From: Squalus acanthias
Taxonomy: Eukaryota
Length of the DNA: 64,000 bases
Reading direction: 5' to 3'
NCBI GenBank assembly: GCA_030390025.1
Contig: CM059432.1
Coordinates: 7,068,001-7,132,000, forward strand
Shown: in pieces, positions 3,051-64,000 of the stretch
Position numbering within the stretch: the first letter of the stretch is position 1
How the letters are laid out: every line of letters starts with the position of its first letter
Made by a program: the position numbers and the translations under genes
Notes under the pieces: generated by a model
Told to the model about the DNA's origin: nothing
The model's database searches: none
What the model saw: the letters and a program-made list of their open reading frames with translations, nothing else

Positions 3051-3949
3051 AGCGTCAAATGCAGCATGAAATGGACATTGTTGCCACTTCAGCTTAAAGG
3101 ACATTCTGATGGGCCAATTATTGAGTGGCATAGCCAGCTGAAAAAAAGCTGAAGCCAAAAGCCCACCATGTTGGCTCTGTGCTACAGCAGACATTATAGC
3201 CTAGAAATGACTGCTTGCATTAGTGGCATATAAATGTGTTTAAAGCTCGTGTGCTAGCATTGCAACAAATCTCAGAGCTCATACTTGCTGTAGAATAAAC
3301 TTCTGCAATGCAGATCCACCTTCACCTTTAACAATAAGTGCAAAGAACTCAGACTTCTTAATCAACAAGATAGAAATCATCCATTCAGCTGTCTCTGCTC
3401 ATTCCCCCCTTCTGCCTGCCCACACCAAACCTCCTGCTTCCAGCTCACCTCATCCTAGTCCTGAACTCCCATCTCTCTCTAATTTCTCTTCCATCTGCCC
3501 CCATTTCCTCTCCAACCTCACATTGTCCATGAGGCCCACTCCCTCTCCCTTGACCCCCTTCCCACTAAACTGCCGAGCACCCAATTTCCCTTCCTGGCCT
3601 CCATGCTAGCTGTTATTGTAATCCCAAACCATCTCTACCAATGGCTTCTCCACCCAGCCCCACACAGTCACCTCAGGACTTCCCAAAGGATCCATCCTCC
3701 ACTCTTCTACATCTACAAGCTGCTCCTTGGCAGCATCATCCACAGACTTCTACATGTACACCTAGCTTTAACTCTCCACCATCTCTCAACTCCTCCACTG
3801 CCTCTGTCCTGTTAGACTCTCTGACATCTAGTCTTGAGTGAGCCACAGTTTCATCCAGCTAAGCATTGGAAAGACCATCGATATCTTTGTCATCTCCAGA
3901 CTTGACTATTCCAGTGCTCTGCTGGCCAGCTTCCCAATATCTATAAACT

Positions 3950-4082
3950 TCTGACAAAAGGTCATCGACCTGAAACGTTAACTCTGTTTCTCTCTCCACA
4001 GATGCTGCCTGACCTGCTGAGTGTTTTCCAGCATTTTCTGTTTTTATTTCAGATTTCCAGCATCCGCAGTATTATGCTTTCG
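3950..4082 (+). mobile_element. Short Penelope-terminal-repeat-derived insertion with hammerhead-like motif; 12-bp TSD
   Basis: TATCTATAAACT at 3938-3949 and 4083-4094. The sequence matches the reverse complement of about 61940-62072. Confidence 0.8.
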
Positions 4083-4219
4083 TATCTATAAACTACAGCT
4101 CATTAAAAAACCCTGCTGCCTGTTTCCTACCTCGCGCCAAGTCCCACTTCCCCATTGTCCCTGTTCTGCTGACCTACATTGGTACCTGGTCCGCCGACAC
4201 CTCACATTTAAAATTCTTA

Positions 4220-4881
4220 GGGGGAAAAATTGAGTCACGCCCCCTTTGGGGCGCTAAAAAAGCGCCCCGAAAAAATTAGCACCCCCACGACCGAAATTCA
4301 GCGGTCGTGCCCCAAGAGGGAAGCGGGGCGCTACTGGAAGCGCCCCGCCTCCCTCTTGGGGCGCTGCGAGGGAATATCGTGGTGCTACGTATTGCAGCGC
4401 TGCGGTACTGCAGGCCTTCCTCCCCTTCTTAAAGGGGAGGGGCCTTGCGCAGCACGACCCGGGGCCCAGCTGGGGCACCAGGGATCGGAGTGCCAGCAAA
4501 AGAGCCCGGCACTCGAGAAGTGCCGGGCTCACGGAGCGCAGCCGGCACTCTTCGGGGGGGGCTGAAGAGGAGGCCAGGGACGGCAACGGGGGCAGGTGCT
4601 GGCAGGCGGCCAGCAACAAAAATGGCCGCCCGGCACCTCCCCTTTAATTAGTGCCGCCCCGGCTGCAATGTCATGGGGCGCTACCGAAGATCGCGGCCGG
4701 GGCGCTGCGCACGGCGATGACGTCATCGCCGGCGGCACAGCGCCGCGGGGCGCTAATGGTTGCCACCGCTGCTGAATTTCACGGTAGGCGGTGCTGCGCC
4801 CAGGCGCTAGTTGCTTTGTGCCCCGTTAGCACCCTCTTAGGGCGCTAACGAGAGTCGCAAAGCAACCGAATTTTATCCCCC
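4220..4881. mobile_element. GC-rich MITE with TTA target duplication (PIF/Harbinger-like)
   Basis: Ends GGGGGAAAAATTGAGT and rc GGGGGATAAAATTCGGT. TTA at 4217-4219 and 4882-4884. It splits an L2-like element. Confidence 0.75.
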
Positions 4882-5059
4882 TTATTCTTCTGTTTAAATC
4901 CTTCCATGGCTTTGCCCACTCCCTATCTTTGTAATCTCCTCCAGTTCTACAATCCCTCACCCAAAATGCTCTATTTATCTGACTCCGATCTCCTGTGCAC
5001 CCTCCCCCATTTTCCTCATCATTGGTGGCCATACCGTCTGCCATTTTTTTCCCCATTTT

Positions 5060-5283
5060 CGGTATGTGGGAGTCGCTGGCATGGCGGGTATTTATTGCCC
5101 CTCCTTAGTTTCCCCGCGAAAGTGGTGGTGGGCCTTCTCCTCGAACTACTGCAGCGATTTAATACAACTGAGTGGCTTGCTCGCCCACTTAGGAGTTGAG
5201 AAGTCAACCACATTGGTGTGGGACTGGAGTCGAATATAGGCCATACCGGGTAAGGACAGTATGTTTCCTTCCTAAAAGACATC
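5060..5283 (-). mobile_element. SINE family B fragment
   Basis: Similar to 365-570. Confidence 0.6.
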
Positions 5284-5579
5284 CTTTGGCCTGCTGTCCC
5301 TTTTTTCCACTAACACGTCCATGAGGCACCTTGGGATGGTTTTCTACATAAAGGGCTCTATATAAATGCAAGTTGTTATTTTTGTGGCCAGCTTATAATG
5401 TCACGGCACACTCTAATATTTCAAAATGTGGTAAATTTTCTTCAGTCACCAGAGGGCAATACGAATATATATTAAAATATTCCATCGACAAAAATATTTT
5501 AATTCACTCGCATAAAATTTCACTTAAGGTCAAATATCTGAGATTACATTCCATTTAAGATCATTTTTGGATAATAATT

Positions 5580-5910
5580 GCAGTCCATTGCAGTACTGAG
5601 GGAGTGCAGCACTGTCAGAGGGTGCCACCTTTTGAATGACGCATTAAACCACCCTCTCAGGTGGACATTAAAGATCCCATGGCACTATTTGGAAGAAGAG
5701 CAGGGGAGTTCTTCCCAACAGTTATCCCTCAACCAGCACCTGAAAACAGGTTATCTGGTCATGATCACGTTGCTGTTTGTGGGACCTTGCTGTGCATAAA
5801 TTGGCTACCGCGTTTCCTACATTAGAACGGTGACTACACGTCAAAAGTACTTAATTGGCTGTAAAGCGCTTTGGTATGTTAAAGACGTTCTATAAGTGCA
5901 AGTCTTTCAT
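5580..5910 (+). mobile_element. Deu-domain tRNA-SINE (SacSINE1-like), 5'-truncated
   Basis: Core cagtactgagggagtg...aaagatcccatggcactattt, plus an L2-like tail. Confidence 0.75.
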
Positions 5911-6104
5911 CTTTTCTTTCATTACACTCTTCATGACTTCAAATAGTCTGCAACACTTCTAATCAGTTAACAGTAGCAAAACAATCCAGCTACTACTTTG
6001 CTAATATTTAGTCCAGGCTGGGCATCAACCTTTCATTACTGGAGAGATCCGTTAACATTAAATCTTACTTGGGATATAGCCCACTCTTTTCTTTATTAAA
6101 AAAA

Positions 6105-6525
6105 AAAGACTTGCATTTAAATTATGTGAAGTACTTTTTGAAGTGCAGTCACTGTTGTAATGTAGGAAACGCGGCAGCCAGTTTGCACACAGCAAGCTCC
6201 CACAAACAGCAATGTGATAATGACCAGATAATCTGTTTTAGTGATGTTGATTGAGGGATAAATATTGGCCAGGACACCAAGGAGAACTCCCCTGCTCTTC
6301 TTCGAAATAGTGCCACGGGATCTTTTATCGTCCACCTGAGAGAGCAGACGGGGCCTCGGTTTAACGTCTCATCCGAAAGACGGCACCTCCGACAGTGCCG
6401 CACTCCCTCAGTGCTGCACTGGAGTGTCAGCCTAGATTTTTGAGATCAAGTCTCTGGAGTGAAACTTGACCCTCCAACCTCCTGACTCGGAGGCGAGAGT
6501 GCTACCCACTGAGCCACGGCTGACC
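6105..6525 (-). mobile_element. Deu-domain tRNA-SINE
   Basis: Reverse complement of the 16003-16460 type, with tRNA-like head gtggctcagtgggtagcac. Confidence 0.8.
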
Positions 6526-6854
6526 CTAAATTATTATTTAACACAAGTGTTAAATAAGAAATGATTTCAGGCAGGCTCCAGCATACTGCTAAGCAACTAA
6601 TTTACAGTTTGAATTATTGAAGCGTGGTACGCTACAGTTTAACTCTTTCTCTAGATATGAGCCCCGCTAATTCAGTTTAGGCTGGTCTTCTGATGGTTCA
6701 CGGTCAAATGCACTTGTTCAGACGGTCGGGTTAGTCGATAGAATCTGACATACAGAGCACATAGTCAGTGCATCCTCAGCTGCTGTGGAGTGAATTGTTT
6801 CTGCAACTTCACTTGAATTCTTTTTAAAGAGAACTTTTTTTTTGTATTGTTGAT

Positions 6855-7520
6855 CAATTTTCTCCTTACTCCGCTGAAGGTACTAAATGATGCTTGGGTA
6901 CAGTTCATGGTGCCGATAGCCCTTCAGATCTTTACCCAAGTACCATTGAATCTATGTTTTTCTTCACCTCTTTAAGCTCAAGTATCTACCACAGGTCACA
7001 AATTTAACACCGCTGATCATAGAATCATACAACACAGAAAGAGTCCATTCGGCCCATCATGCCTCTGCCGGCTCTTTGAAAGAGCTGTTCAATTAGTCCC
7101 ACTCCTCCTCCCTTTCCCCATAGCCCTGCAAATTTTTTTCCTTTTCAAGAATTTGTCAAATTATCTTTTGAAATTTATTGTTGAATCTGCTTCCACCACC
7201 CTTTGCATTCCAGAAAATATTCTTATACTAAATGTTGAGCCAAAGGCTGTTCCTCATTTATGAGTCTTGGCAGGCTATTCAGTCGTGGGTGCATCACATT
7301 TCCTCACCTGACCTGCACACTTTCAGCGTGAGCTACTGGTTAGTAATTGCGAACAGGGACCATGGTTGATATTTCCCTACCCTAGCCCAGGATGTTGAAG
7401 CCAATTGTACCATCCTTTCCACTGAGGTCAACTAATTCTACACAGTCCAGTGATGCAATTTGGATCTTCCCCAATCTCTCCAGGTGGTTTATTTATGCAT
7501 CGGGCTGCCAGGGGAGCTAT
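6855..7520 (-). mobile_element. Old SINE family C, interrupted by a CR1 3' fragment (about 7019-7215)
   Basis: Divergent similarity to the reverse complement of 35070-35365 plus 38535-38660. Confidence 0.4.
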
Positions 7521-8128
7521 TTTTGCTCCATTTAATGGTGGCTCGGGTTACTTTCCAAAGTAGCTTATAGACAAATTGATAAATAGGAATATGACTTTAT
7601 ACCTTTTTACTCTTGCCTCTGTGTACCGTATCTATTTGTGAATTACTAGAAGGACAACAACATCCCCAAAAAAATGCCCAGGGGTTCTCAAACCGCTCAT
7701 ACAATACCAACGTTAATGGGCCTGTATTGTTTGGTATTAATTTGCCACGGTACTGAATCATCTACAATAGCCAGAAGCTATATTACATGGAATCAAAAGT
7801 TCCTTACCTCTGGAAAGCAGCTCAAAAATTTACCACCGCGTACACCACAGGAAATAAATTCTTTTGTCAGTGTAAGCCAGAGGACAAATTAAACATTAAA
7901 GAGACCATGGGGATTGAAGCTAAGTGTGGTTTGTAGAGATGAATACAAATCACCATTAAAATTTCCCCTGGCACTGTTGCTAGAATATTGGGTGTAGGTG
8001 CCTTGATTTTGTCACTTTTGACACCTTGTCACATGTAGCTTAAACCCTCTCTCTTCCCAGCACTCAATAAGAGGTTACGACCATATTGGCTAAGTAGCAG
8101 CTGGGATTTCGAATGTCATTACAACATA

Positions 8129-8161
8129 TCCCCCCCCCCCCCCCCCCCCCCCCCCCACCCC
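8129..8161. repeat. poly-C tract
   Basis: About 28 consecutive C residues. Confidence 0.9.
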
Positions 8162-9967
8162 TGCTCACTGAAAAGAAAAAGTAAAAGGGGATTTAGCAGA
8201 CACAAAGCTAAGTTTACTGAATCTGGCGATAATTTTAAAAAAAAAGCAGCGGGATCTTAATTCCTGTCTGCATTTGCCTGATGCTGAGGTGCGTTTTGCA
8301 ATCCACCGCAAGTAAAAATGTAGGAGGAAAGAACAGATGTTGTAATATTCAAGAAACAAGCCTCCACCTAATCCCGGGCTCGAATCCTGCAATAAATTGC
8401 AAACTCACGGCGTCCTGAAGCCTCCAGAAATGTTCTGTTGTAAAACGCTGACACTGATCAGTCCTTTAGAATTTAAATAAATGTTTTTTTTTAAAATGCA
8501 GCGGAGCATGTAAAGGAAGCCTGATATGGATTGTTGGGGGGGGGAGGGGGGGAAAGACACTTATTGAAATATTTAAGTGAAGATTAGTGGAGTTAAAACA
8601 AGGTCAGATATCACTCAGTTCATTTTTTTTCTTTAATCATTTGGGTTTTAAGGAAATGGCAATATTTTTCAAATTTGTAATTTTTAACGGCGGTTCGTTA
8701 GGGCAATTAGTTACTGTCAGAATTCTGACTTACGCTGCTGCCTCTTCGATAGACTGACGGCTGTTTACCTGCCTTCTCCGTGATTTAGCAAGATGAGATC
8801 ATATAAATTGATAACCATCTCTGTGTTTTCTTCTGATTCATCTCTGACCTGAACTCTACTTGAACCTAGTTAGACACAAAACATCCAGGATTCTTGGTTG
8901 AAGCCATAAAATTTAATTAAATCCTACAGAAATGATGTGTAAAAGAACACCGCAGTACCCCAATAAAGTGCAAATAAGCACTGTGATGGATTAAAATAAT
9001 AAATGTGCCTGCTTCTCTTGTGTTTGAAGTGAAGGCAACAAATATGGGCTTCCAGCAGTCAATATAGTAATGATGTTAACAGGAAAGGTTATAAATGACA
9101 TGCACAAGGACCTCATCTGCTTAAGATCACTGCGTAATTTTACTGCTGGTTATATGGTGCTGACTCTGGACTTGCAAAGGAGCACACAGCCGCAGCAGAG
9201 CCCCATTCAGCAGTCATAATCTGTAACCTGAACAGGGTTTTTGCTGCAGCGACCCCGCAGTTTGAAATCATAAGCGATCACTTAACTCAGCGGTGCGACA
9301 ATGCACGTAATTTGTTTTCACACTCGCCCGCTGAAGGAGTGGCGGCGGCAGTTAGACCAAGAGAATATATGTCAGCGTGGAACAAATTGTTTCCATTGTT
9401 TACTCTGGACTAAATAGAACGCCTATTAAATTGTACGTTAGGCATTCGCATGTTCCAGCGTGAGAGGGCCTTAAGTAGCATCCCCGGCGCTCAATTGCTT
9501 GCTGCAGTCAGCATCTTTAAAAGACATGTTCCATGCACAGCGCCCCCCCCCCCCCCTCCTTCCCCAGCAATGTTTGAGGAAGCCATTAAATTATTTCTTC
9601 ATAAACCTGAATTAAAATACAGGTTTGAAAACCTTCAAGTATGCGGAGTATTCGGTCGAGCACAAGAGAACATGTTATATTTCCTTTACAAGGCAGATCA
9701 GTCAGTCAGCAAAATATATTGGGTTCCATAAATTATTGCGGAGAGTTCAGTTGCTTCAACAGTTTTCTCATAATTCCACAATGCTGCTTAGGAGCTGGCA
9801 TCCTGTATTAATTATGTGCAGATGTAAAGATCAGAGAACTGATTCATAAGAACTGCAGAAAGAAAAGAAGGCTAAGACAAATGTTTCTTTTAGCCTTGCA
9901 CTATTTAATTTATTGTGCAGTTGTCCAAGAGAGGATAAATCTGACATCCTTTTCTTCCTCCGTTTAG

Positions 9968-13249: not shown

Positions 13250-15330
13250 AACACAACAACTTGTTTTTAATGTAGAAAAACATCCGAAGGTGCTTCCCAG
13301 AGCCATAATCAGAAAATAACTATGTCGCCGAGCCAGAGATATTAGGAGAGGCGACCCAAAGCTTGGTCAGAGGTGGATTTGAAGGAGGGCCTTTAATGAG
13401 GAGGTGGAGTTGAAGTGGTGGCGGGATTTGGGAAGAGAATGCTAGAGCGTGTGCTCCAGGTAGCTTCAGGCAAATCTGTCAACGGTATGGCCAAGGAAGG
13501 GAGGTGGAGATGCACAAAAGGCCAGAGTCCGAGGAACAGAAAGTTCAGGGTGGGGTTGTAGAGTTGGAGCAGGTTACAGAGATAGGGAAGTGGCAAGGCC
13601 ATGCAGGGATTTCAACAACAAGAATGAGAATTTTAAATGGAGGTGAGGGGGGTGGGGGGTGGTGGTAGGGGAGGGAGGGCGGGGGGGGGGGCGGTAACCA
13701 GAAGCCAAATGTAGGTCAGTAAGGACAGGGTTTGATGGTGAGTGGGAAATGGTGCATAATAGGATACAGGCAGCAGTGCTTTAGATGATCTGAGGCTTAC
13801 GGAGCTTGGGGGATGAGAGACCGGCTAGAAGAGTATTAGAGTAAGCAAGTCTGGAAGTGACAGAGACGTGGATGAGGGTTTCAGCAGCACATGGACTGAG
13901 GTAGGCAGACAGTTGTGATGGAGAGGATATGGGGTCAGACGCACAGCTCAGCATTGACTAGAACACCAAGGTTGTAAACAGTCTGGTTCAGCCTGTGGAG
14001 GGCTGGAATCAGTGGCAAGGTTACGGAGCTTGTGGCAGGAGCCGAAGACGTTGGCTTTTGTCTTCCCAATTTTTAACTGCAGAAAATTCTAGGTCATCCA
14101 AGACTGGATGTCAGAAAAGCAGTCTGACAATACAGAAGCAGTGATGGGGTGGAGAGAGATGGTGCAGATGTAGAGCTGGGTGTCGCCAGTGTACAGCTGG
14201 AAGCTGACCCACCCCATGACTGCAGATAATGTCACCAAGGAGCAGCATGGAGATGAGGAAGAGGAGGTGGCCAAGAGTAAATCCCAGGAGGACTCCAGAA
14301 GCAACAGTGTTGGTGCAGCAAGAGAAACCTTTGCTAGACATGTTGCGGCTATGATTTGGATAGGCAAGAGTGGAACCAACTGAGAGCAGTCCCATTGAGC
14401 TGGATATCAACAGAGGGGATTTGGAGGAGGATGATGTGGCCAACTGTGTGAAAAGCTTCAAAGAGGACGAGGAAGGTTAATGCACCACGGTCACGGCCAC
14501 AGAAGATGTCATTTACGTCTTTCGTTAGGGTCGATTTTCAGCTGTGGTAGGATCGGAAACATGATTGGAGCAATTTAAGCATGGAATTTTGGAAAAGTTG
14601 GGCATGGATTTGGGACGCAATAACACGTCTTTAGAGAGGAAAGTGAGGTTGGAGATGGGGCGGTAGTTTGCAAGGACAGAAGTGTTGAAGGTGGGTTTTT
14701 TGAGGAGGAGTTGATGGCGGTTTTGAAATGGTGGAGAACAGTACCTGAGGGAGAGGTACAATATCAGGTGGCATGCAGGGCCAGCAGGTGAAGTTGGGTA
14801 GTCAGCAATTGAGTGGGAATAGGGTCAAGGAAGCAGGAGGTGGGTCTCATGGACAAGATGAGCTTGGAGATGGCATGAGGGCAGATAGAAGAGAAACTAA
14901 AGAAAGATGTGGGTTCCGGTCAAGGGAAGGGGGGAGCCCAGGGGTGAAGTTTAGTCAGAGGGGAGGTGGAGAAGCAGAGAATGTGGAATAGATGGTCTCA
15001 ATCTTAGTGAGAAAGGAGACAACACGGAGTGATTGGTGAGTGGAACCTTGTGTGGTATAGGATGCGAACAGCAGAGTCTTGGGTGGGCTTAATATTACAG
15101 AAGATGGAGGATGAAATGTTGGCCAGGAGAGCATTGAAATAGTCAAGTCCGAAAGTGACAAAGTAATATATGGACAGCGACAGGGTGGGCGATGTAACAG
15201 AGGTGGAAGGAGGCGGTCTTTCTGATGGAGACTGTATGGAATTGAAAGGTCAATTTGGACGCAGAGATTGCAAACAGTCTGGTTCAGCCTGAGACAGTGG
15301 CCAGAGAGGGGGATGGAATCGATGGCGATG
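13250..15330 (-). mobile_element. Degraded L2-like LINE (RT remnants)
   Basis: Remnants ANYRPISNLTFLSK and FQLYTGDTQLY...LSDCFSDIQSWM; tail caacaacttg at about 13255. Confidence 0.75.
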
Positions 15331-18552: not shown

Positions 18553-19332
18553 TCTTCAATGTTCCGAACGTATTGTCACCACCCAACCGTGAGCCCGGCA
18601 TAATTTGTTTGAATCCTTTCAGTCTGATTTCCAACCTATTCACAGCACTGAGGATTCAACCACATCCTGTAACATAGCAACTGGCAGCTTATCCTTCATC
18701 GTTGTCATTGACCTATCTGCAGCGTTTGGGGTGGTTGATCACTCATTCCTGGTCCCCACCCTCACCTCCAAAGTCTATTTGCATGATACTAACAAAACAT
18801 GGGTCCATTTTCTATCTTCCCAATGTAGTCAGTATATCTCATCCAATGGCTTCATCCCCTGCCGCTGCAGTCACCTCGGCATGCCATCCTTGGACTAATC
18901 TTTTTTGATACATCTACATGCCACCCCTTAGTGACACTTGGTGTCACCTTCCATATGTATGCCGATGACACCACCCGTTGACTCCCCCCCCCACCCCGAC
19001 AACTTTCCACCAGCACCCTTACCTCCATGAAAACTGCTATGATATCTGGCATCAGCTTCATGCAGGCTGAACCCTTTTGTCCTGAGCTGAACTTCAAATC
19101 CCACTTTTCTGGGTGTCGCCAATACCACCTGCTTCTGGAGAAGTGCCTTTCCACGTCTCCAATATTCCCCTACCGCCATTGAGGCCATCATCTACCCATT
19201 CCTCACCTCAAGGTGTGATTGCTCCAATGCTTTTTCGCCTGGCCTCCTGAGCTGCACCTTATATAAAGTTCACCTCATATTCCATATCGTACCAGTCGCA
19301 CAATCTAACGCCCCAACCCTTGCTGACTTCTG

Positions 19333-19418
19333 AAATAAAAACAGAAAATGTTGGAAATACTCAGCAGGACAGGCAGCATCTGTGGAGAGAGAAACAGAGT
19401 TAACGTTTCAGGTCGATG
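19333..19418 (-). mobile_element. Short Penelope-terminal-repeat-derived insertion; 17-bp duplication
   Basis: ACCCTTGCTGACTTCTG at 19316-19332 and 19419-19435. Confidence 0.8.
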
Positions 19419-19462
19419 ACCCTTGCTGACTTCTGTTGGCTCCCCATTCCCCAGTAAATCAA

Positions 19463-41940: not shown

Positions 41941-42641
41941 GGGAGTCATTTTAACTTTTGGAGATGGTGTAAAACGGGACAATATCAGATCGCCCGCCCG
42001 TTATACACCCTGCGCGATTTGTAATGGACAGGAACATCAGGCGGGGTGCAAAACTGAGGGGGTGCCTAACGGGCAAGGTGTAAAACGGAGGAGGTATATG
42101 ACGGGCAGGGTGTTTAACAGAGGAGGTTTATGATGGGCGGGGTGTATAATGGAGGAGGTATATGATGGGTGGGGTGTATAACAGAGGAGGTATATGATGG
42201 GTGGGGCGTATAATGGAGGAGGTATATGATGGGTGGGGTGTATTACAGAGGAGGTATATGATGGGTGGGGTGTATAATGGAGGAGGTATATGATTGGAGG
42301 AGGTATATGATGGGCGGGGTGTATAACGGGTGGGGTGTATAACGGAGGAGGTATATGATGGGTGGGGTGTATAACGGGCAGGTTGTATAACGGAGGAGGT
42401 ATATGATGGGTGGGGTGTATAATGGAGGAGGTATATGATGGGCGGGGTGTATAAGTGAGGAGGTATATGATGGGTGGGGTGTATAACGGGTGGGGTGTAT
42501 AAGTGAGGAGGTATATGATGGGTGGGGTGTATAACGGGTGGGGTGTATAATGGAGGAGGTATATGATGGGCGGGGTGTATAACGGGCGGCCAATCGGATG
42601 TCGCCTGTTTTACACTATTGACAAAAGTTAAAATGACCCCC
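41941..42641. mobile_element. TIR element with about 70-bp inverted termini and an internal minisatellite
   Basis: GGGAGTCATTTTAACTTTTG versus rc GGGGGTCATTTTAACTTTTG (19/20); similarity continues to gcccgttatacaccc. Confidence 0.8.
42088..42588 (+). repeat. G-rich minisatellite with a 32-bp unit and a 16-bp subunit
   Basis: (ggaggaggtatatgatgggtggggtgtataat)n interspersed with gggtggggtgtataac. Confidence 0.92.
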
Positions 42642-43231
42642 TCTATTTCTGCTTGCCCGCGCATCATTTTACCTTATTTACCTTTGTAATTTTACCTAAT
42701 CCGTCTATTCTAATTACATAGAATTTACAGCACAGAAACATTCGGCCCAACTAGTCTTTGCCGGTGTCTACGCTGCACACGAGCCTCCTCCCACCTTACT
42801 TCATCTAACTCTATCAACATACCATTCTATTTCTTTCTGCCTTATGTACGTACCGAGCTTCCTCTTAAATGCAGCTGTGATCTTAAGTGGTGCTTTCTAT
42901 AAACTAACCTTTATATATAAATTCTTCTTGCCTATTTTCTTCTTCATTTTGGCTTCTGCCACTTCCGAGAAAGAAGAACTCGCTCTAAAGGTTTTTTTTT
43001 CAGCAAATGACATCCAAAGTCTGAATCTTGCAATTTTCATTGATGGGCATGGTCACATCATCGACTGGGCCAGCCAGCCAGCCTTGGTCGAGCAAATGTA
43101 TTACTGCTCAACTCTTCAGCTGTCCTTCGGAGCCCATCACACCCAGATAGCCAGACCTGACCACAGCACGGTAAAGGTTCATTTTGTAAAGGTCAATTCT
43201 TTCATTGTTAATTATTATTCCTTTCAAACAG

Positions 43232-49218: not shown

Positions 49219-49429
49219 ATAAAAACAGAGAATACTCTGCAGGCCAGGCAGCATCTGTGGAGAGAGAAAAACAGAGTTAACGTTTCAGTTCTGGCGAAAG
49301 GTCACCGACCTGAAACGTTGACTCTGTTTCTCTCTCTTCGCAGATGCAGCCTGACCTGCTGAGCGTTTCCAGCATTTTCTGTTTTTATTTCAGACTTCCA
49401 GCATCCGCAGTATTTTATTTTTGTGTTGT
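49219..49429. mobile_element. Penelope-terminal-repeat-derived insertion with inverted (head-to-head) arrangement
   Basis: A - copy at 49219-49288 abuts a + copy at 49286-49421. Flanks AATAATCAAG (49209-49218) and AACAATCAAG (49430-49439). Confidence 0.8.
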
Positions 49430-57033: not shown

Positions 57034-57600
57034 GTGTCAGCTGTGGGCCCAGTGGGTAGCACCCGAGCCTCTGAGTCAGAAGATCGTGGGTTCTGAAATC
57101 TAGGCTGACACTCCAATGCAATACTGAGGGAGGTGCCGTCTTTCGGGTGAGACGTTAAACCGAGGCCCCATCTGCCCTCTCGTGTGGACGTAAAAGATCC
57201 CAGGGCCACTATTTCGAAGAAGAGCAGGGGAGTTCTCCCCGCTGTCCTGGGGCCAATATTTATCACTCAAACAACACTAAAACTGACTAAAATAACAACA
57301 GAAAACGCTGGAAAAACTCAGCAGGCCAGGCAACATCCATGGAGAGAGAAAGAGAGTTAACGTTTCAGGTCGAAACCCTTCGTCGGAACTGACTATCTGT
57401 TCATTATCACATTGCTGTTTGTTGCTGTGCCCCTCAACCAACATCACTAAATCAGTTCATTATCACGTTGCCGTGCGCATATTGGCTGCCGCATTTCCTA
57501 CATTACAACAGCGACTACACTTGAAAAGTACTTATTTGGTTGTAAAGCGCTTTGGGACGTCCTGTGGTCGTGAAAGACGCTATATAAATGTCTTTCTTTC
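57034..57600 (+). mobile_element. Deu-domain tRNA-SINE interrupted by a Penelope-derived insertion
   Basis: The SINE consensus is broken at 57289/57387. Confidence 0.8.
57290..57391 (-). mobile_element. Short Penelope-terminal-repeat-derived insertion with hammerhead-like motif; 9-bp duplication
   Basis: AACTGACTA at 57281-57289 and 57387-57395. Confidence 0.8.
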
Positions 57601-57671
57601 TGACATAGCTTCCTTGCAAAGCTTAGTATTTTTGTGCCTGTAATAAAATATTCAAACGAATTATGAATCAT

Positions 57672-57930: not shown

Positions 57931-58255
57931 AAGATGTACTCCTTTCACTGATAGTCACTCTTTCAGACCTCAGATTGATATAAAATGAAGAAACCAGTAC
58001 TGTAAGTTCTCCTTAATTCCATCACTTCCAAACATAGATAAAGTCCTGTAAGACATGATGCGCATGGGTTCAGAAGGATTCTTCAAATATGCAGTGACTT
58101 TCCGAATTCCTCTTGCGTGCAGCAGATTTAATCTTCAGTTCAGGAAATTGCCTTTTGGACGGTCCGAGCATTGTGCAGAAATGTCTCGGCATTTCACGTG
58201 AGGAAAAACGTACGGATATCTAGGAATGATAACAGGGCAGTAATCTAATTTCTGA

Positions 58256-58342
58256 AATAAAAACGGAAAATGCTGGAAATACTCAGCAGGTCAGGCAGCA
58301 TCTGTGGAGAGAGAAACAGAGTCAACGTTTCAGGTCGATGGC
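58256..58342 (-). mobile_element. Short Penelope-terminal-repeat-derived insertion; 8-bp duplication
   Basis: ATTTCTGA at 58248-58255 and 58343-58350. Confidence 0.75.
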
Positions 58343-61934: not shown

Positions 61935-62645
61935 AAAACAAAAGCAAAATACTGCGGATGCTGGAAATCTAAAATGAAAACAGAAAATGCTGGAAACACT
62001 CAGCAGGTCAGGCTGCATCTGTGGGGAGAGAGAGAAACAGAGTTAACGTTTCAGGTCGATGACCTTTTGTCAGGACTGGAAGGAGTTAGAGATATAACAG
62101 GTTTTAAACAAGTGCAGAGGCAGGGAAGGGGAGGAAAGAACAAAAGGGAAGGTCTGTGATGGGGTGGAGGGCAGGAGTGATTAAATGGCAAAAGGGATGA
62201 TGGTGCGAGGCAAAATGGGGTGGTAATGGGACAAGTAAAGAAAGAAAAGATTAATCTAAAGGAGCTGTAAGTGGTAATAGCACAATCATTACCTGCACCT
62301 GCTGCCAGAGAAAATGGGAGCAGTGGTTATGACCTGAAATTGTTGAACTCGATCTTGAGTCTGGAAGGCTGTGAAGTGCCTGGTCGAAAGATGAGGTGCT
62401 GTTCCTCGAGCTTCCGTTGAGCTTCATTGGAACAGTGTAAGAGGCCGAGGACGGAGTGGGATGGAGAATTAAAGTGGGAAGCAACCGGAAGCTCAGGGTC
62501 ACGCTTACGGCATGAATGGAGGTATTCAGCAAAACAATCACCCAATCTGCATTTGGTCTCCCCAATGTAGAGCAGGCTGCATCGTGAGCAGCGAATACAG
62601 TGTACTGAATTGAAAGAAGTACAAGTAAATCGCTGTTTAAGGGGT
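61935..62645 (-). mobile_element. Penelope-like element 3' fragment: GIY-YIG endonuclease remnant plus terminal repeat
   Basis: ORF 62327-62650 (FTCTSFNSVHCIRCSRCSLLYIGETKCRLGDCFAEYL...PVASHFN), followed downstream by the repeat found as solo insertions. Confidence 0.85.
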
Positions 62646-63623: not shown

Positions 63624-64000
63624 CTCCTGTTCCTATGTTCCTAATCAACACGGAGTATTTGAAAAATCAACTGCTGCAGTAGGCTGAGTTTAGTGAGACC
63701 CGTACACCAACAACTATGATGCTTACAAATGTGTTTCCTTGCGATAGTTCTTAAATGATGCATTAATCGCAGAAAAAATGCAAAAAGAAAAGATACAACT
63801 TGATTTTATATACAATCTACTCCTCTTGCTTTGAAGTTGCTTCATTCAAGTTACCTGCTCGTTCAACTTGAAATTGTGCAAAAAAAGTCTCCTGTTGAAA
63901 ATGCATTGGAACTTAAATGCTTAGTTCAGTCCTCTTAATTTGACGTAGAGTCATCCAGACTCGAGTCGTCGTTGGCTTGTTCTCTCTACACAGATGCGGC

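Follow-up and report, generated by a model that had tools for sequence, protein, structure and literature searches.

The 64-kb window analysed here, i.e. the whole stretch of 64,000 nucleotides of Squalus acanthias DNA, contains several copies of a hammerhead-like motif, and the copy at about 57 kb departs by one base, U4C, from the catalytic core CUGANGA. The locus raises the question of whether this base was lost after the copy had landed or was inherited from an element that kept moving with it. Minimal hammerheads in the pLTRs of Penelope-like elements (PLEs), the extra A and the palindromic helix III are known, whereas a U4C core that is fixed in a young line appears to be new.

The motif at 57 kb (57355..57390, minus strand) is a minimal type I hammerhead with a U4C core, a 4-bp helix II closed by a UUCG loop and a 4-bp helix I, as judged by its sequence, its coordinates and its rank as top match of an independent model. 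On the minus strand, the 5' strand of helix I (57390-57387) is followed by the core CCGACGA (57386-57380), the extra A (57379), helix II (57378-57367), GAAA (57366-57363), a CG insert at helix III (57362-57361), U16.1 (57360), H17 (57359) and the 3' strand of helix I (57358-57355). From the hammerhead numbering, the cut is predicted to fall between 57359 and 57358. The core of this copy, like that of its subfamily, is a variant of CUGANGA and not a member of the consensus, and pair 10.1-11.1 is G-U instead of G-C.

An earlier sequence-only reading had written out four hammerheads, at 57, 49, 3.9 and 62 kb, and all four sequences are present. The motif is beyond chance because a covariance model built exclusively from relatives, i.e. 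from 15 hammerheads of non-host PLEs, ranks these copies as the top 4 of its 12 window matches (E 0.0004, 0.0044, 0.0048 and 0.027, the E-values being rough). The fifth match (15217-15256, E 0.1) has neither ACGU nor a pLTR context and was treated as chance. A comparison with Rfam Hammerhead_1 (RF00163), which had been proposed as a check, came out negative: type I topology and catalytic boxes are the same, but no hammerhead match at E<=10 was obtained in the window, on the 57 kb copy or on an intact-core copy. The helix I pairing AGTT/AACT described for these copies is complete at 57 kb and at 49 kb, where it closes with G-U, but contains one mismatch each at 3.9 kb and 62 kb. Similarly, helix III had been described as the palindrome AACGTT. 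The palindrome itself is real, but it corresponds to ACGU (15.1-16.1) and extends to six bases only if H17 is U; the sister subfamily includes copies with H17=C. The extra A before helix II is also real, and it has already been described for the hammerheads of metazoan PLEs (PMC4209133).

The motif lies at the start of a 5'-truncated PLE pLTR stub (57290..57392, minus strand), which begins 2 nt ahead of helix I, ends near +99 and is 98-99% identical to full-length U4C pLTRs (99.0% over 104 nt to the U4C locus L241, 92.2% to the canonical sister L247). The stub is bounded by a 9-bp target-site duplication (left copy 57387..57395, right copy 57281..57289, both minus strand), whose left copy overlaps the 5' strand of helix I and shares a 6-nt microhomology with the element. 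It was inserted into an older dispersed repeat (57090..57601, bounds approximate, minus strand; repeat families D12/D18), which resumes on both sides and which we take to be SINE-like. The "mini-element" of the earlier reading does not represent a family of its own and is a truncated PLE pLTR stub of ~100 bp. The assignment of the motif to the minimal hammerheads of PLEs was borne out by the PLE context, by the location in both pLTRs and by its orientation, which is sense to the ORF encoding RT and GIY-YIG. Several other PLE ends (flanks of L123, L111, L128, L184 and L170) also adjoin the repeat that hosts the 57 kb stub. Moreover, the target duplications at 57395-57387 and at 19435-19419 overlap the element at its 5' end by several matching bases, which suggests microhomology at the 5' joint of these insertions.

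Which element gave rise to the stub? An upstream walk from genomic relatives led to elements with the motif in two repeats ~3.2 kb apart, and 39 genomic relatives of the 62 kb copy share a common 3' end and have variable upstream stops. The unit is 3,193 bp long and carries the motif in both pLTRs, which flank a 916-aa frame (RT, CX4CxxC and GIY-YIG) that begins 140 nt after the cut site. Pfam places RT (PF00078) at residues 432-566 and GIY-YIG (PF01541) at 818-853, both below the curated cut-off. The CX4CxxC motif was detected between RT and endonuclease (EN) in four of five intact U4C frames and was not found in the fifth. The Neptune-type linker has been defined as CX2-5CxxC between RT and EN (PMC8557442). 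Judged by this linker definition, the carrier is an endonuclease-bearing (EN+) PLE of the Neptune type. Among named proteins, the best matches come from Chiloscyllium (71% and 66%); a PDB sequence search with an RT fragment and a Pfam search with a 103-aa fragment from the window gave no match.

The genomic copies of the element include partial tandems such as the tandem trimer L247, inverted truncated copies and copies with an optional tail of 30-40 bp. At the 3' side, short copies stop at one of two fixed positions (about +100 or +135); their 5' ends are ragged, with a cluster at helix I, and target duplications are present. Starts within -5..+4 of helix I were observed in 3/7 window copies and in 16/32 rows of a genomic match set (rough binning). 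Among the short bystander copies that start after -40, 8/27 start at helix I and 1/27 exactly at the cut site; binning and de-duplication are rough for all of these 5'-end counts, and the starts at the cut site are too few for comparing U4 with U4C lines. L247 (G000:C4:15715500-15725400) is a head-to-tail array of at least three canonical-core units, which are 99.94% identical, encode two full 916-aa frames and have H17=C.

The window also contains the 3' end of an older PLE copy (61935..62641, minus strand), which consists of the end of the GIY-YIG ORF (62641-62330), the 3' UTR, a hammerhead with G8A (62078-62040) and the tail. The GIY-YIG frame end lies upstream of the hammerhead on the same strand and matches residues 808-916 of the intact ORF with 77% identity (E 1e-42). 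The 3' end of a LINE (62850-62700, minus strand) is located directly upstream of this truncated copy, which starts at 62641. Two pLTR stubs lie on the plus strand, one with an A6G core and a G-U pair closing helix I (49285..49427), to which an inverted partial pLTR copy is joined (49228..49291, minus strand; local search match 49291-49231), and one with a G8A core and a 12-bp duplication (3949..4089; duplication 3938-3949 / 4083-4094). On the minus strand, one stub ends at helix II and has no CUGANGA (19329..19424, 17-bp duplication), and another ends inside helix II (58251..58342, 8-bp duplication; local search match 58338-58251). A further pLTR copy fragment was detected at the window edge (63980..64000, plus strand; local search, E 0.008). 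Besides the 57 kb stub, three stubs in the window are thus flanked by duplications of 8-17 bp, whereas a 7-bp match at the 49 kb stub is doubtful. The sequence-only reading had missed 19424-19329 and 58338-58251, which both stop inside helix II, as well as the inverted copy at 49291-49231 and the edge fragment at 63980-64000.

The family core can be derived from genome-wide counts. In the 3.7-Gb genome, CTGANGA-N12-21-GAAACGT was matched 63,070 times, compared with 1,525 times in the reversed control. Like all pattern counts given here, these numbers refer to motif matches and not to elements, an inverted or tandem pair contributes two, and some patterns are stricter than others. Because of this excess, CUGANGA can be regarded as the family core, as had been proposed. 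In agreement with this, the core is fully intact in 27/39 and 24/30 older 3' copies, the second set consisting of 39 loci, of which 9 were without a 3' motif in range and 30 were scored. Single-base departures are sporadic among the older copies (CTGACAA in 2/39 and 1/30, CTGGCGA in 1/39), and G8A would be the expected product of CpG decay. The earlier view that the named copies each departed by one base from an ancestral CTGACGA therefore holds for the sporadic changes at 3.9, 49 and 62 kb. The 57 kb copy did not decay after insertion; its core and its shortened helix II are inherited from a young subfamily.

The evidence for this subfamily comes from several searches. An exact U4C 32-mer has 1,434 genome matches, the control having 0, and the 40 loci that score best against the 57 kb copy share 98-100% identity with it. 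When loci were chosen by their 3' UTR only, a search designed to avoid selecting for the variant core, 29/29 non-self loci carried CCGACGA. A looser U4C pattern gave 2,827 matches (control 940), and ~70 of 100 listed matches were of the short-helix type by hand count. Furthermore, 30 loci were chosen by the tail and the ORF start; their 5' motif is U4C in 10 and canonical in 17, and 3 stop shorter. Nine of the 10 elements with a U4C 5' repeat have a second motif 3.17-3.20 kb on, which has C4 in 8/9 cases, and 5/10 contain an unbroken 916-aa frame. U4C is thus inherited, because it was found in 29/29 loci, in 1,434 exact matches and in both repeats of open-frame elements. On these counts, a young subfamily with no fewer than 1,434 motif copies has U4C as a fixed part of its core, which is not the decay of a lone copy. 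The rest of the core is intact in this line, whose copies have a median identity of 98.75% (9 copies, 28 pairs). By the same counts, the U4C RNA has been copied over a thousand times recently, likely by its own protein. Among the titles and abstract openings covered by the literature searches, none reports a fixed U4C line of PLEs. Lunse et al. 2017 are said to have compiled a catalogue of PLE hammerhead variants, which could already list U4C.

The closest lines differ in helix II and in position 4. The short-helix line with U4 has 1,339 matches. The canonical-core sister with a long helix II is 93.5% identical to the U4C line, has 7,716 matches with U4 in all 100 listed, and is slightly younger (median 99.08%, 23 copies, vs 98.75%). 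In a tree of 90 endonuclease ends, the short-helix clade is supported with 100/99 and the U4C rows are nested in it with 86/89, having shorter tips than the short-helix U4 rows; these support values are rough and the bootstrap had not settled. Placed on the tree, U4C requires 2 changes, and 28% of the bootstrap trees require 1. Moreover, L083 and L100 combine U4C with a long helix II, and U4C may have arisen more than once. As read from the tree, helix II was shortened by one base, then U4C was fixed and the line kept producing copies. Between the ORFs of the canonical and U4C lines, 11 nonsynonymous and 60 synonymous changes are fixed. On the branch that follows U4C, 4 nonsynonymous and 6 synonymous changes were counted, which does not differ clearly from the baseline of private changes (32 and 22; p=0.18) and gives no clear sign of purifying selection on the ORF since U4C arose; the U4C line may therefore be mobilised in trans.

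The conservation of the motif was also assessed outside the host. Among 80 metagenome loci encoding related proteins, the motif was found on the ORF strand in 28/80 and on the other strand in 7/80, compared with 0-1 in 10 shuffles. In 15 metagenome relatives with a 2-nt helix III insert, 7/9 pairs show changes on both sides, a score that is partly circular because the search descriptor demanded pairing. Taken across PLEs, the motif is thus conserved as an RNA structure. No compensatory change was seen in helix I within the host, where variation is confined to 10.1-11.1 and loop II; the four host lineages that were compared do not differ in helix I or ACGU. The proposed covariation of helices I and II is therefore seen across PLE families, but not for helix I within the host. 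The unpaired extra A between 9 and 10.1 is present in all four host lineages and in 21/26 family representatives, and G10.1-C11.1 occurs in 19/26, both mostly not demanded by the descriptor. The palindrome (15.2-16.2), of which the outer pair was demanded, is found in 25/26, and U4 is kept in 25/26 representatives. When folded as a monomer, the host motif is predicted to form an inactive hairpin in which core positions 4-8 pair with the CG-UH-1.1 (ACGU-cut-site) strand and of which U4C removes the end pair; differences between the lines in these folds depend on the length of tail included.

The host motif closely resembles the minimal hammerheads described for metazoan PLEs (Cervera and De la Pena 2014, PMC4209133). 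The type I layout, the 4-bp helix I, the unpaired base between 9 and 10.1, the palindromic 15.2-16.2 without loop, the NUH and the U-rich upstream flank are the same, as are the one motif per pLTR ~3 kb apart and the predominance of solo, truncated copies. In contrast to these motifs, U4C is fixed in one host subfamily, C4 being present in none of the motifs in supplement Fig. S3, which include no cartilaginous fish (PMC4209133). Moreover, the host helix II has only 4-5 bp, and pair 10.1-11.1 is mostly G-U or A-U and rarely G-C, the usual pair; G-U and A-U cases also occur in the published list (PMC4209133). The host has 63,070 intact-core matches, while 4,000-9,000 were reported for coelacanth and frog with different search methods (PMC4209133). 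A second relative is the Anolis Poseidon element PAc (Frangieh et al. 2024, PMC11167929), which shares the pLTR location, two 3' ends ~35 nt apart (optional tail) and the whole motif in genomic copies. However, the PAc ORF starts inside stem II and the host ORF 140 nt after the cut site, the host protein has the Neptune-type CX4CxxC linker, and cleavage has been demonstrated in vitro for PAc (PMC11167929) and is predicted from sequence for the host. Non-LTR retrozymes, which have been reported in one chondrichthyan, also contain a type I hammerhead originating from a PLE pLTR (bioRxiv 10.64898/2026.07.22.740005). Retrozymes are short tandem non-coding units, each with an intact hammerhead, whereas in the host it is the truncated ends of a coding PLE that are dispersed: at 57 kb there is a solo stub with a target duplication, and the tandem units found are 3.2-kb coding elements. 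Finally, the same core substitution occurs in a natural viroid hammerhead, and thus in a replicating element (ref. 30 of PMC3088659). The viroid hammerhead, known with U4C from one isolate, has a full helix III and loop-loop contacts, in contrast to the more than 1,400 copies of the minimal host motif. The effect of U4C is hence known from a hammerhead with tertiary contacts, while predicted tertiary contacts are absent in the host motif. The viroid observation probably goes back to Ambros and Flores 1998.

How could a line with this core keep producing copies? We lean, with somewhat more confidence than doubt, towards a weakened U4C ribozyme in the truncated PLE pLTR, which would cut slowly as a dimer or with the aid of protein and more slowly with U4C, and towards insertion from uncut RNA that would not be limited by cleavage. 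Judging from the literature, helix III would form only between two motifs via ACGU; because helix III has no loop, an active core would need two motifs that are paired in this way, and cleavage would trim a minority of the transcripts. The short copies would then stem from target-primed cDNA synthesis on RNA whose hammerhead was still whole. Full-rate cleavage by the element's own core would not be required for mobility, since U4C was fixed and the line kept producing copies. Published observations agree with these steps. It has been reported that U4C "considerably decreases activity in vitro" yet permits viroid infectivity (PMC3088659, secondary citation). PLE minimal hammerheads have low activity and cut slowly even as dimers (PMC4209133; PMC6765202). 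For the Anolis element, it has been shown that core mutants insert normally in vitro, that cleavage needs protein and that reverse transcription begins at two sites, which define the tail (PMC11167929). On the other hand, the canonical sister is larger and slightly younger, which fits a cost of U4C, and U4 is kept in 25/26 family representatives. The genomic record suggests that elements of this line may keep jumping with a likely weakened ribozyme.

It is also conceivable, although rather unlikely, that U4C kills the minimal ribozyme outright and that the hammerhead is a dispensable passenger, which this line starts to lose. In a deep mutational scan, mutations of the CUGA turn gave low activity (PMC9901934), and the motif has no predicted tertiary contacts that could offset U4C. 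Furthermore, Naiad PLEs thrive without canonical hammerheads, which according to the authors may parasitise PLEs (PMC8557442), and the normal insertion of the Anolis core mutants would also be expected of a passenger (PMC11167929). However, U4 and the remaining core have been kept across distant PLE families, including those in Fig. S3 of PMC4209133, and U4C retains some activity in the viroid (PMC3088659). The U4C line has also kept the rest of its core, albeit over a short time.

An unlikely alternative to the weakened ribozyme is that the U4C RNA is cut in trans by transcripts of canonical copies, processes theirs poorly and has its own core under little selection. Mixed dimers, and with them such a trans model, are possible because all four host lineages compared share helix I and ACGU. 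If the dimer is laid out as published (PMC4209133, Fig. 1A legend), the cut site of either RNA would be enclosed by its partner's core, and canonical cores outnumber U4C ~20-fold before background correction (63,070 vs 2,827). On the other hand, two different RNAs would have to meet through 4+4+4 bp, and the lowest-energy computed homodimer pairs through the helix II strands and not in the active layout. If true, sister retrotransposons of a single genome would offer a case of trans-complementation, and of social cheating, between their ribozymes.

Slightly less probable again is a neutral U4C, for which the element protein or a host chaperone restores full activity while cleavage is still essential. 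Protein-assisted cleavage has been demonstrated for the Anolis element (PMC11167929), and the exact motif copies of the U4C line are about as many as those of its U4 predecessor (1,434 vs 1,339). However, U4 is near-invariant elsewhere, and many genomic copies keep the whole motif, so that uncut RNA would have been the template. It is very improbable that the motif only resembles a hammerhead and serves as start site, splice acceptor or protein-binding hairpin. The clustering of 5' ends at helix I, the pyrimidine tract and CAG preceding the motif in the host lineages examined and the lack of an Rfam match would fit such a role, but the catalytic boxes are kept while the helices covary across distant families, including U3-A8 in 4/26, the AG belongs to helix I and is missing before the motif in most metagenome relatives, and related motifs cleave in vitro (PMC4209133; PMC11167929). 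The original proposal of a lone insertion that landed with CTGACGA and then decayed applies to the 3.9, 49 and 62 kb copies, but for the 57 kb copy it is refuted by the near-identity to dozens of loci, the 1,434 exact matches and U4C in both repeats of open-frame elements.

The U4C line is of interest for whether PLE hammerheads matter in vivo: they are conserved across animals, but cutting is slow and, in one in vitro system, insertion is normal with a mutated core. The genome provides a natural experiment with three young, intact-looking lines, which share helix I and the palindrome: canonical with a long helix II (7,716), short with U4 (1,339) and short with U4C (1,434). Full-length copies with an open frame are known for the canonical and U4C lines. 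Their comparison bears on whether cleavage is needed, dispensable or supplied in trans. Moreover, the case warns against writing off a copy as dead for a single departure from the consensus, which can be the marker of a subfamily, and descriptors that demand CUGANGA miss lines of the U4C type.

Some minor observations can be added. In the host pLTRs examined, a pyrimidine tract and CAG stand just before helix I and end in its 5' strand, with CTAAC upstream in older lines. This arrangement is reminiscent of a splice acceptor such as that of D. virilis, or else of an initiator. A splice acceptor ending in helix I is kept in the host, is absent in most metagenome relatives, has no conserved donor by eye and is regarded as unsupported; for two polypyrimidine-CAG sites after the motif, this role was rejected because the AG is lost in young lines. 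Assembled contigs of runs guessed to be RNA (4/24 aligned), which cannot show transcript ends, revealed no clear splice joint. In a marine metagenome contig, a PLE ORF fragment is followed downstream, on its own strand, by a single copy of a further U4C minimal hammerhead with 5-bp helices (L314:2501-2541, minus strand), which may be fixed or decayed. In the window, a tandem array with a 16/32-bp period was observed at 41944-42669, and a GC-rich repeat at 4230-4700, which has strong inverted symmetry and weak miRNA-like Rfam scores, is likely a foldback mobile element.
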